16,900 bases of DNA, taken from IMG/VR virus record IMGVR_UViG_2724679238_000014, positions 1-16,900 of that record. The stretch is one strand, 5' to 3'. The stretch comes from a virus. Lineage: Duplodnaviria > Heunggongvirae > Uroviricota > Caudoviricetes. Numbering within the stretch: position 1 is the stretch's first letter; the number at the start of each line of letters is the position of its first letter. This document shows, one piece after another, positions 11,201-14,200 of the stretch. The position numbers were made by a program.

Positions 11201-14200
11201 CCTGCTTTTTCTCGATAAGACAGTAACTTATTTTGATGGTGATGGCATTTATGCATTTTGTTTTGATGGAGAATGCTACGTGAAAAGACTTCAAAAAATT
11301 GGAAGTAAAATCATGGTGTTATCTGATAACCCCAATTATCAACCATGGAGCATCGAAAAAGAGGGGTTAGCTCTGCTTTATATCCAGTCTAAAGTGATCT
11401 CATCAGTACCATTCAATATAAACAGATTTGGTTAGTCTTTGATTTTAACGGGCTTTGCCCGTTTTTTTTTGCCTAAAACACACTGTATCAATTTTTTCTT
11501 GACAGCCTATTTCTCAAAGCATAATATCGCACAATCAATTATAACTTGATTGAATTCAATTTAAAATTGTTGGCGGATATATGAAGACACTAAACGCAAC
11601 TCCAGAAACAACTAATTTTATCAACTGCGGCTGTGTTTCGCTTAAGGGCTTAGAACTTGATTCCTTTGCATTAAATATTGCAAATTTGCTAAGTGCTGTA
11701 CGCACATTCCATCTTCTGGATTGTGCTCGCTCAAAGGAACTGGGCATTGAGGTAATGGAATTTATCCATGAATATGCTCTATCTGCGGCTTCTCCTGCAC
11801 AACAAAAACAATCCTTCCCTGAAAGCTGGCTGGTTAACCTTCGCACCCAACGCGAAGCCTGCGGCTTAACAACAGCCGAACTCGCCAGGCTGCTCGATCT
11901 CGATGAAGAAATTATCATTCAGTGGGAGAGCGGAGAGTATGAACCAACTATCAGTATGCTTATCCCGCTGGCAAATGTTCTTGGTTGCGACCCGATGTGG
12001 CTGTTAACCGGTAAACCAACAACTGGGGATACTTGCGCATGAAAAAGTTCGAAAACATAACTGTTCTCCATGTCGATGACTTTGATTATACAAACCGAGA
12101 ACTTCTCCCGGAGGTTATAAAAACAATCGAAGTTGCCGATATAGTGTTTAGAGGAAAGAGGATTGTTAAAAACAAGCTCGTATGCAATTCAGGAGCAATA
12201 ACAGAAAAAAAACCACAACAAGATGATTATGAAGGTATTTGTCTGGAGCCTGACTCATTTGCGGTAAATGTTTATCATTTATTGCATGCAACACAGGTAT
12301 TACATATGTCAAGTAATCACGAAACAAAAACACTTGGCAGCGAAATTCTGAATTTTGCATGTGAATATGCAAAAGCTGCTGCCGAAAAAGAATTAGCGCA
12401 ATAACAATAAATATTCCCTGAATGTTTATTACGGTTTTATCGCCGGGGACTGTTGCAACCTTTATTCGCAGGAGATTATGTTATGACTTTCCTGAAAAAT
12501 AAGGCATCGTATAAAACTGCCTGCCTCATTGCACAACATGGAGATTCTTATCTTCATATAGCCAACCTGTATTTGCGCAAAGCATATGGGAGATAAATAA
12601 ATGGAAGAAAAACAACAGAACATAACACATAAAAAAGTAAGAGTGTTGCTAACCATTGAAAATGGCGAAGTAATTTACTCAAAACATCTGTTGGATAATG
12701 AATTCGTTGGATGCATGGATACATTTCTGTGGATGGCAAAAAGAGCTGGCTACACAATTATTCCACCAGCAAAGGAGAAAACATTATGAATCATTCAGAG
12801 TTCCAACCAGAAGTTACGCCACATGGCATAAAAATTGGCAATACAACCATTGATTATGTTGAGGCCGTACAGCGGCTTAATGATGGTGAATACGATTATC
12901 CAAATTCTCACGGTTTAAGAATTATGCAATGTATTGCTGAAGCCGATGATGCCGGATTACTGGGACGATTTTCAGTCGATATGAAGGTTGCTCAATGGCG
13001 ATGGCTGTATGTGACGACGTTTATAAATGAAGAAGAAGGCAAGAACGGCACCATTGATATCCCTAACGATAACGGAACTACAGATCGCGCGGTTATTTAC
13101 AAGGGTAAACATGGTTGCCTGAGTATCTACCCTGGACCACTTCGCATTGCCCTGCAAAACCATGTCGAATGGGGATTCATTGAAAAATATGGCGAAGCTG
13201 AAGGCATGGGGCGAGTTCTGTTTCTCTATCAAAAAATGCTCATCGCAGATCCTGATAATGGCTTCATTGTCTCTGCTATGGGACGAGAAGGGCTTGAACT
13301 TCTTCTGGATGAAATGATTCACGATCTGAATACTCATGGTATGCCAGAAACACCAGTGGCACATTAAATATGTCAAATCAGAATAAAATTAATGTATTTC
13401 AGGTTGAATCAAAACATAAAACACCTGTGACAAAACACGTTCGCCGCCATACACGCATCTATACGCCAGGAGAGTTTATGGCAATGCCAATGATAAAGAA
13501 GTTTATTCGTGATAATCCCGATCACATTGCTATAGATAAAAATAACGGAGAAATAATGTTATCACGCGAACTTGCCGAAATTTACTGTAACGTGAATAAC
13601 GGTAAAAAATTGAAAAAGGCAATCCGAAAAAAATCAGGAGTAACAAAATGAATAGCATCGAGACACAATGTTCCTCATCTGAAGTTATGAACTATGACCC
13701 AAATCTGACGTCGTGCGGACGCATGGCAAAACAAACTGTTCGATTAACTTTCGGACTATGGGAATACCGCGAAACATTCGAAGTCACTGTCGGTGGCAAC
13801 CTGACCGGACTCGATGTTATCAGTTGTGCTATTGAAAGTCTGTACGAAACGCTGCCTTATGAAGAAGTCCGGAATGAGCGCACTGGAGGGACGGATATCA
13901 TGGCCACCATTAATATTGGCGAACTGACATGTCAGGATGAAGACCTGTCCGGAGAGCTCTGGCTTGCCGGGATGCTTATCTCAGCAGAAATTATCAGTAT
14001 TGAACCCGCTACAAACATACGGCTCTGAAGTTCTCACCATTCAGAGAGCAGGAGAAAAAATGTTCGCTTTGATTAATCAAGGGCAACTGTATACCGACAG
14101 TGCCGGTTACCCGATAAAAATTATTCGCTGCATAAACAACACTGTGTTGTACAGAAGAATGGATGGGCGAACACAATCTGTAAAAATAAGCGATTTTAAT

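Follow-up and report, generated by a model that had tools for sequence, protein, structure and literature searches.

A probable early-left promoter and left operator beside the cI gene of an Stx2f-converting prophage, with a 17-bp dyad shared by the cro/cI region

The locus between the cI repressor gene and the leftward operon

The stretch of DNA considered here (hereafter the window: 16,900 nucleotides, positions 1 to 16,900 of the IMG/VR virus record IMGVR_UViG_2724679238_000014) is a compact temperate prophage drawn opposite to the usual lambda orientation, and the element in question is the promoter region that separates its cI repressor gene from the operon transcribed away from the immunity region. 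Here a cro-like gene on the minus strand is divergent from cI, and cI is followed in turn by a terminator, a promoter, a gene for a 153-amino acid (aa) helix-turn-helix (HTH) protein, five more predicted genes, xis and an open reading frame (ORF) taken as int. On predicted gene content, this order is the left-arm layout of lambda. The features on which the argument turns are as follows:

10340..10612, minus strand: cro-like gene, 90 aa, with a YdaS/P22_Cro-type HTH (Pfam YdaS_toxin 1.4e-12, P22_Cro 7e-5; phrog_35, transcriptional repressor)
10746..11435, plus strand: cI repressor gene, 229 aa from ATG (Pfam Peptidase_S24 4e-17, HTH_3 4.9e-8; phrog_4 9e-54)
11447..11472, plus strand: strong predicted intrinsic terminator of the cI transcript (stem-loop 11447-11463, 7-bp stem with 5 GC pairs, T9 run)
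11487..11503, no strand: site A, ATCAATTTTTTCTTGAC (1 mismatch; weight-matrix score 19.9)
11499..11527, plus strand: predicted early-left (PL-type) sigma-70 promoter (TTGACA 11499-11504, 17-nt spacer, TAATAT 11522-11527; 10/12 in the promoter scan)
11534..11550, no strand: site B, ATCAATTATAACTTGAT (0 mismatches to ATCAA-N7-TTGAT; weight-matrix score 23.4, the top of the window)
11581..12042, plus strand: 153-aa protein, first gene of the leftward operon, with a C-terminal HTH_3 domain (Pfam HTH_3 1.4e-11; phrog_4836)
14461-14670, plus strand: excisionase gene xis (phrog_2917)
14598-15797, plus strand: 399-aa ORF taken as the integrase on size and position

The CI protein combines an HTH_3 domain (residues 11-52) with a Peptidase_S24 domain (residues 139-206) and has UmuD-like matches among solved structures; on this combination of domains it is assigned to the S24 (LexA/CI-type) class of self-cleaving repressors. 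The promoter, which an earlier note made from the sequence alone had described as TTGACA-17-TAATAT, is present exactly as stated there, and transcription from it would start near 11534-11535. It is located just past cI and would drive an operon away from the immunity region to xis and int, which is the position of PL and its left operator (OL) in lambda-like phages.

A 17-bp dyad overlaps the core elements of the leftward promoter

The functional unit at this promoter is a 17-bp dyad, ATCAA-N7-TTGAT, the family consensus of which is a perfect 17-bp palindrome, ATCAAGTTTAACTTGAT. Site B begins 7 nt past the -10 hexamer, covers approximately +1 to +17, and forms the core of a longer inverted repeat, CAATCAA-N7-TTGATTG (11532-11552), which the earlier note had singled out; the repeat is there and its core dyad is conserved, but the outer C/A and T/G that extend it to 21 bp are not, the relatives mostly reading CCATCAA...TTGATT(T/A). 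Site A, which had been missed in that note, overlaps the -35 element, its right half-site (TTGAC) coinciding with the hexamer. Such an overlap between dyad-symmetric operators and core promoter elements is that of the OL/PL type.

Both the rarity and the placement of the dyad set it apart from the background. With at most one mismatch allowed, ATCAA-N7-TTGAT has three matches in the 16.9 kb (10700, 11487 and 11534), against about 1.2 expected window-wide, and all three lie inside two regulatory intergenic regions that amount to 1.6% of the window, where by our own arithmetic about 0.02 would be expected by chance. A weight matrix trained on the sites of the relatives alone was then run over the window, with 200 shuffles as the background. 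The four highest scores in the window were obtained at 11534 (23.4), 10651 (20.9), 11487 (19.9) and 10700 (18.4), followed by 11555 (11.1) and 10621 (10.2); the mean maximum of the shuffles was 9.8 and the highest shuffle scored 17.0.

A search with the CI sequence recovered 80 viral contigs with CI proteins 79-100% identical to that of the window. Sites A and B, together with their 47-bp spacing, are kept across 80 related loci, including groups whose CI is 93%, 88% and 80% identical. In the distant groups site A takes the form ATCAATTTTTGATTGAC or ATCAAGTTTAACTTGAC, site B that of ATCAATTATATATTGAT, ATCAATTTTAACTTGAT, ATCAAGTTTAACTTGAT, ATCAAGTAAATCTTGAT or ATCAAGTTAAACTTGAT, and the sites flank TTGACA or TTGACG and a -10-like hexamer. 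A close set, consisting of the window and 46 loci with CI at least 97% identical, comprises 41 distinct sequences. Across these the -35 and -10 hexamers are invariant and 8 of the 17 spacer columns (47%) are variable; site A varies rarely (2/17 columns), and site B in a single column of its 17.

The half-site ATCAA is identical to the core of the IHF site, and the region is AT-rich, which might suggest that a host nucleoid protein, for instance IHF, binds these sequences and shapes promoter architecture without a part in immunity. Yet none of the five sites matches the IHF core as such (WATCAANNNNTTR), and the two matches to it in the window occur elsewhere (4211 and 9720). Furthermore, the sites have dyad symmetry and a constant 7-bp spacer, and phages of other immunity types with the same downstream gene and the same host lack them. 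Sites of this kind are therefore a highly improbable explanation. Other elements that could be read into the same stretch were likewise set aside. A LexA box around site A would have its CTGT...ACAG halves spaced 15 nt apart and not 8, and the CTGT is unconserved, being CGAT in relatives. The promoter-like TTTAAA-16-TATAAT on the minus strand (11565-11538) is the AT-rich spacer of site B read backwards, its hexamers not being kept in other groups. A 31-nt direct repeat (11539-11569 and 11650-11680; 74%) is partly coding and was treated as a chance occurrence.

The adjacent 12-bp palindrome and a possible third left site

Next to site B lie two further elements, the first of which overlaps its end:

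11549..11560, no strand: ATTGAATTCAAT, a perfect 12-bp palindrome containing an EcoRI site; a chance feature of the window
11555..11571, no strand: possible weak third left operator, site C, TTCAATTTAAAATTGTT (weight-matrix score 11.1, borderline against the shuffle value of 9.8)

In the earlier note the first of these had been regarded as a second, stacked regulatory element. The palindrome does exist in the window, but as a candidate operator it was rejected: all 46 loci with CI 97% identical or more lack it, the bases at its middle are hypervariable, and the window holds three perfect 12-bp palindromes where 4.3 are expected, so that their count is not above chance. Because the central positions 11552-11554 are the most variable spot of the region, and the close relatives have TGA, AAG, AAA, TAA, TTA, TCA or TAG there but never GAA, ATTGAATTCAAT is best regarded as an accident of one sequence. 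As an observation in its own right, this triplet, which falls between site B and the possible site C, shows at least eight variants among loci with CI 97-100% identical, with invariant flanks, and is probably an unconstrained linker separating two protein-bound segments. Contigs representing one genome per species gave no match to the region of site B, whether scanned for exactly or with this triplet left free.

Site B and the 12-bp palindrome would both fall in a 46-nt leader, and the minimum-energy fold of this leader pairs the arms of site B, which raises the alternative of an RNA hairpin that controls the translation or stability of the HTH mRNA. The fold is nevertheless an ordinary one (-8.4 kcal/mol, z = -1.34): of 200 shuffles, 22 gave a fold as stable or more so. 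Moreover, site A and the cro/cI sites described below share the motif yet are outside the leftward transcript, and the second palindrome is not conserved. We thus give this RNA-level alternative next to no credence.

Site C begins 21 bp past site B, just before the ribosome-binding site. Relatives of the Stx2f phage phi467 type have a strong site at the corresponding position, at +22 (GTTAATTTTAAATTGAT, score 20.0), and none is present there in the Stx2-type relatives and those with 80%-identical CI. Set beside the three-part OL of lambda, the window therefore presents two strong left sites 47 bp apart and a weak match of 11.1 at a distance of 21 bp past site B.

Related dyads form a probable three-site right operator between cro and cI

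The intergenic region between the divergent cro and cI genes contains the following members of the same operator family:

10621..10637, no strand: cro-proximal site, ACCAACATTAACTTTAT (2 mismatches; weight-matrix score 10.2); would cover about +1 to +17 of the predicted rightward promoter
10651..10667, no strand: middle site, ATCAAGTTTAAATTAAC (weight-matrix score 20.9); same position in every relative group; would fill the spacer of the predicted rightward promoter
10700..10716, no strand: cI-proximal site, ATCAAGTAAAGATTTAT (1 mismatch; weight-matrix score 18.4); conserved; would overlap the -10 and start of the predicted cI maintenance promoter

The sites at 10651 and 10700 outscore every shuffle, and the occurrence of one operator family between divergent cI and cro genes is the arrangement of a right operator (OR). 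Dyads are found at the three matching positions in every group of relatives, and at the cro-proximal position the relatives have better sites, namely ACCAATATTAACTTGAT, ATAAAGTATAACTTGAT and ATCAAGTTAAAATTGAC. The promoters with which these sites would overlap are both assigned from their hexamers: a rightward promoter on the minus strand, with TTGCAT (10673-10668), an 18-nt spacer and TATTCT (10649-10644), and a weak cI maintenance promoter with a putative -10 of TAAAAT (10696-10701). The promoter scan called neither the rightward nor the cI maintenance promoter.

The earlier note had pointed to three copies of ATCAAG in this region, two of them 11 bp apart, as shared half-sites. All three are present (10640, 10651 and 10700), and those at 10651 and 10700 are indeed the left halves of real sites; the copy at 10640 is not, being variable in relatives and scoring only 2.5 with the weight matrix, and the real third site is that at 10621-10637. 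The proposal of OL/OR-type operators itself holds up well, in that the same 17-bp dyad is found at the leftward promoter and in the cro/cI region and appears to travel with the immunity module.

CI and Cro, and not the 153-aa HTH protein, are the probable binders

The protein encoded immediately downstream has a bona fide HTH_3 domain, and sites A and B fall within the promoter and leader of its gene, an arrangement common for XRE-type autoregulators; in addition, the weak extra dyad at site C (11555-11571) occurs only in lineages with this gene family. The earlier note had accordingly held this protein to be an equal candidate for binding the palindromes, which would then be its autoregulatory operators. 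The comparative evidence does not sustain this. In 10 loci with an approximately 80%-identical CI, a homologue of the 153-aa protein is missing and the first downstream genes code for unrelated 104-133-aa proteins without an HTH domain, yet sites A and B are intact at the unchanged spacing of 47 bp. The reverse situation also occurs: four other immunity contexts (phiP27 L10, L149/L151, L150 and L158) have a near-identical HTH domain, each time behind a different repressor gene, and up to 2 kb to either side no ATCAA-N7-TTGAT site is present in any of them. Three of the four have, in the promoter of the HTH gene, a different motif that recurs in their own cro/cI region: CCAAAGTATCAA in phiP27, AATAGGTAAA in L149 and TATACTTGA in L158. 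The same dyad is also present in the cro/cI region of the window, 800 bp away.

The predicted recognition helices are in keeping with this distribution. All the groups with ATCAA dyads (CI 79-100% identical) share one and the same helix in CI (SAQSVQYW) and likewise in Cro (TPQAVNQW). The aligned helix of the 153-aa protein, DEEIIIQW, begins with the acidic D-E-E at the positions normally contacting bases, as against S-A-Q in CI and T-P-Q in Cro. In mosaic relatives the operators co-segregate with the cI/cro module and not with the flanking genes, and they do not travel with the HTH gene as the operators of an autoregulated XRE/HTH gene would. Given that the dyads are kept where the HTH gene is lacking and are absent beside the same HTH domain elsewhere, the sites follow CI/Cro and not the 153-aa protein, and autoregulation by the latter becomes very improbable. 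The sites are thus best assigned to the CI/Cro immunity module, with binding by CI and Cro themselves being the likely consequence.

The 153-aa protein is itself a mosaic, with a C-terminal HTH (from about residue 85) that hardly differs among at least five immunity types and an N-terminal part that changes with each of them, which implies a recombination joint inside the gene. Compared with phiP27 L10 it is 79% identical over residues 67-153, and the HTH motif itself, from RTQREACGLTTAELA to the C-terminus, is near-identical in L10 and in the three further contexts. Residues 24-72 match the PHROG families 4587 and 5451, which describe the C-terminal half of the next ORF (12039-12404, plus strand). 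It is conceivable, though we regard it as unlikely, that this protein is an undescribed early regulator occupying the place of N, with an acidic-helix HTH and an immunity-specific N-terminal domain; the variable N-terminal domain may then act in an immunity-specific way, for example by contacting CI or Cro, or via the lineage-specific dyad at 11555-11571. Were this so, Stx2e/Stx2f-type phages would have here a second, so far unrecognized level of control over the choice between lysis and lysogeny. A simpler view takes the conserved stretch that codes for the HTH as a mere recombination joint beside the immunity module.

Variations on this gene and its promoter are seen in other relatives. In the metagenomic relative L158, which has a different, non-S24 repressor of 161 aa, the promoter before the gene with the same HTH domain (about 1700-1745) contains TATCAATTATAGTTGATA, i.e. 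ATCAA/TTGAT half-sites with a 6-bp and not a 7-bp spacer, and the region equivalent to cro/cI has the palindrome TCAAGTATACTTGA. In relatives of the Stx2a-phage type, as at 3302-4039 of L059, the post-promoter gene codes for a protein of about 240 aa in which the conserved HTH domain is tandemly duplicated.

Terminators and the question of antitermination

The earlier note had observed that intrinsic terminators follow cro and cI and that no N-like antiterminator is evident, and had left read-through control as unexplained. The observation on N is supported: neither Pfam nor PHROG gave an N match in the leftward ORFs, the first of which encodes the HTH_3 protein. The puzzle, in contrast, largely dissolves. 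The terminator after cI, a hairpin kept in the window-type and 80%-CI groups, is upstream of the leftward promoter; it therefore closes the cI transcript and has no bearing on the leftward one. Between 11581 and 15797, the end of int, the prediction gives no strong plus-strand terminator, and no boxA (CGCTCTTTA, at most one mismatch) was found near either early promoter. The combination that defines a lambda-type N-dependent left operon, an N gene with nutL boxA/boxB after PL, was not found, and as the left operon is without a strong predicted terminator or boxA, there is no need to invoke an N function.

The hairpin after cro (10284-10312) was scored as a plus-strand terminator with a 12-bp stem, which fits an 83-aa ORF convergent to cro; in the cro direction it has a short T run and may act weakly. 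This ORF (10004-10255, plus strand; phrog_10846, unknown function) is located between cro and the Rha/Ant gene and resembles a moron that has entered the early-right operon; at this place Stx2_14040 lacks an ORF of the kind.

A model for the control region

Taken together, these observations suggest, with a probability that we put at about 80%, that the interval is the early-left PL-type promoter with the left operator of an Stx2f prophage, bound by the CI/Cro immunity repressors. In the lysogen, dimers of the S24-type CI would bind the 17-bp dyads A and B. With CI on A, at the -35, and on B, at about +1 to +17, RNA polymerase would be blocked and the leftward operon silenced, from the 153-aa gene via xis to int. 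RecA-stimulated self-cleavage would remove CI and allow the strong promoter to fire. Cro, with a recognition helix resembling that of CI, would later probably bind the same dyads and turn down early transcription. The dyads at 10621, 10651 and 10700 would constitute the matching right operator. The layout that can be predicted firmly is one of three right and two left operators, possibly with a third on the left.

Several points weigh against this interpretation. The 10/12 promoter match lacks significance by itself, the window having 24 promoter-like matches where 28 are expected. Sites A and B are 47 bp apart, or about 4.5 helical turns, which differs from the approximately 24-bp spacing of lambda operators, a spacing that supports pairwise cooperativity in that phage. 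The cro/cI sites are imperfect, with one or two mismatches, and the score of the cro-proximal site (10.2) is near that of the shuffles (9.8). The relatives are homologous, such that the conservation in part reflects shared ancestry, for which the variable spacer and flanks provide an internal control. Finally, sequence analysis does not separate CI from Cro as the binder.

The prophage beyond the immunity region

The window is, from its gene content and from a stx operon 99.3% identical to that of the Stx2f phage phi467, an Stx2f-converting prophage; complete genomes of Escherichia coli reach about 97% identity at best. The genes typical of a Shiga toxin (Stx) prophage are encoded on the minus strand:

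2788-4023, minus strand: Shiga toxin A and B subunits (RIP-family A subunit, 319 aa; Stx B subunit, 89 aa, phrog_851)
4471-4839, minus strand: Q antiterminator
387-1828, minus strand: P21-type holin and lysozyme

Besides the holin and lysozyme genes, the minus strand carries Rha/Ant-type and Ash/Rha-type genes, DnaD-like, DnaC-like and DnaB replication genes, and two tRNA genes. The latter, tRNA-Gly (TCC) and tRNA-Thr (TGT) at 2121-2195 and 2199-2274 (minus strand), follow stx instead of preceding it, occupying the interval from stxB to the holin gene. Two Rfam matches that exceed the gathering scores, one to C4 antisense RNA (82.8 bits; 8829-8916) and one to isrK (63.7 bits; 8941-9017), both on the minus strand, fall within the 5' portion of the 220-aa Ash/Rha ORF (8412-9074). 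They suggest that an antirepressor or regulator encoded in the rightward operon is under an RNA-based control like that of P1 immI or of Gifsy-1 isrK, and the 'Ash' Pfam match of the 220-aa ORF may overlap the C4/isrK RNA genes.

Implications for Stx-phage immunity

Loss of CI from the operators in such phages leads to toxin production and phage release. Surveys of Stx phages have sorted CI into clades and replication types and describe the binding specificities as unknown (PMC8951638); among the papers of the library that was searched for the operator sequences, none contains them. The result offered here is a testable operator consensus for this CI clade, ATCAAGTTnAACTTGAT, with a map of three right sites and two, possibly three, left sites. 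With such a consensus, immunity groups could be predicted from sequence, and it could guide the design of reporter or induction assays. Its value is in annotation, in the immunity typing of Stx2f/Stx2a/Stx2e-related prophages and in the correction of the first reading of this locus; the mechanism is unsurprising.

Comparison with known systems

The control region resembles PL/OL of lambda in that the promoter follows cI and directs transcription out of the immunity region, to xis and int, the operators overlap the promoter core, the same operator family recurs in a three-site right operator between divergent cI and cro, and the repressor combines an HTH with an S24 domain. The operator differs: that of the window is ATCAAGTTnAACTTGAT, whereas the lambda operators are of the TATCACCGnCGGTGATA type. 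Furthermore, the window has two strong left sites 47 bp apart and at most a weak third, in contrast to the three sites about 24 bp apart in lambda, and there is no N gene, nutL or boxA after the promoter, the first gene encoding an HTH protein. HK022 CI is among the closest of the named and studied CI relatives, being about 37% identical with an S24 domain, but its operators are of the TGAAC...GTTCA type, unrelated to ATCAA...TTGAT, and with its differing half-sites HK022 was rejected as an operator relative.

Among the Stx phages, the passage of PMC8065619 that cites Tyler, Mills and Friedman (2004) gives three right and two left operators for the Stx2 phage 933W. This is likewise a Shiga toxin prophage in which an S24-type CI controls toxin release, and the numbers of operators on the two sides correspond to those of the window; it differs from the window in the clade of its CI and in its operator sequences. 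Moreover, 933W has N and lambda-type O/P replication genes, whereas the prophage of the window has Rha/Ash genes next to cro, and DnaD-like, DnaC-like and DnaB genes, in which it resembles the 'Eru'-type non-lambdoid Stx phages (PMC8951638). The Stx2f phage phi467 (LN997803; CI 88% identical) and the Stx2a phages LC5678xx (CI 93-94%) belong to the same immunity family as the window, sharing sites A and B, the 47-bp spacing and the three cro/cI positions, and the operators are not annotated in their records. They differ from it in that phi467 has a strong third left site (20.0) where that of the window is weak, and in that the LC5678xx phages have a longer downstream protein with two HTH domains.

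The Stx2e phage phiP27 provides the most instructive comparison. Its left-arm genes are 95% identical to those of the window from 11839 on, and its first leftward gene has a near-identical HTH domain; however, its repressor is L11, and its operators, in both its own cro/cI and leftward promoter regions, are of the CCAAAGTATCAA / GGTATCA type. With the same left arm joined to a different repressor and different operators, phiP27 thus represents a natural control, in which the operators follow the repressor. Seen against all of these systems, the control region of the window appears to be a standard one of the OL/PL type, textbook phage biology in principle, to which a new operator specificity would be added.

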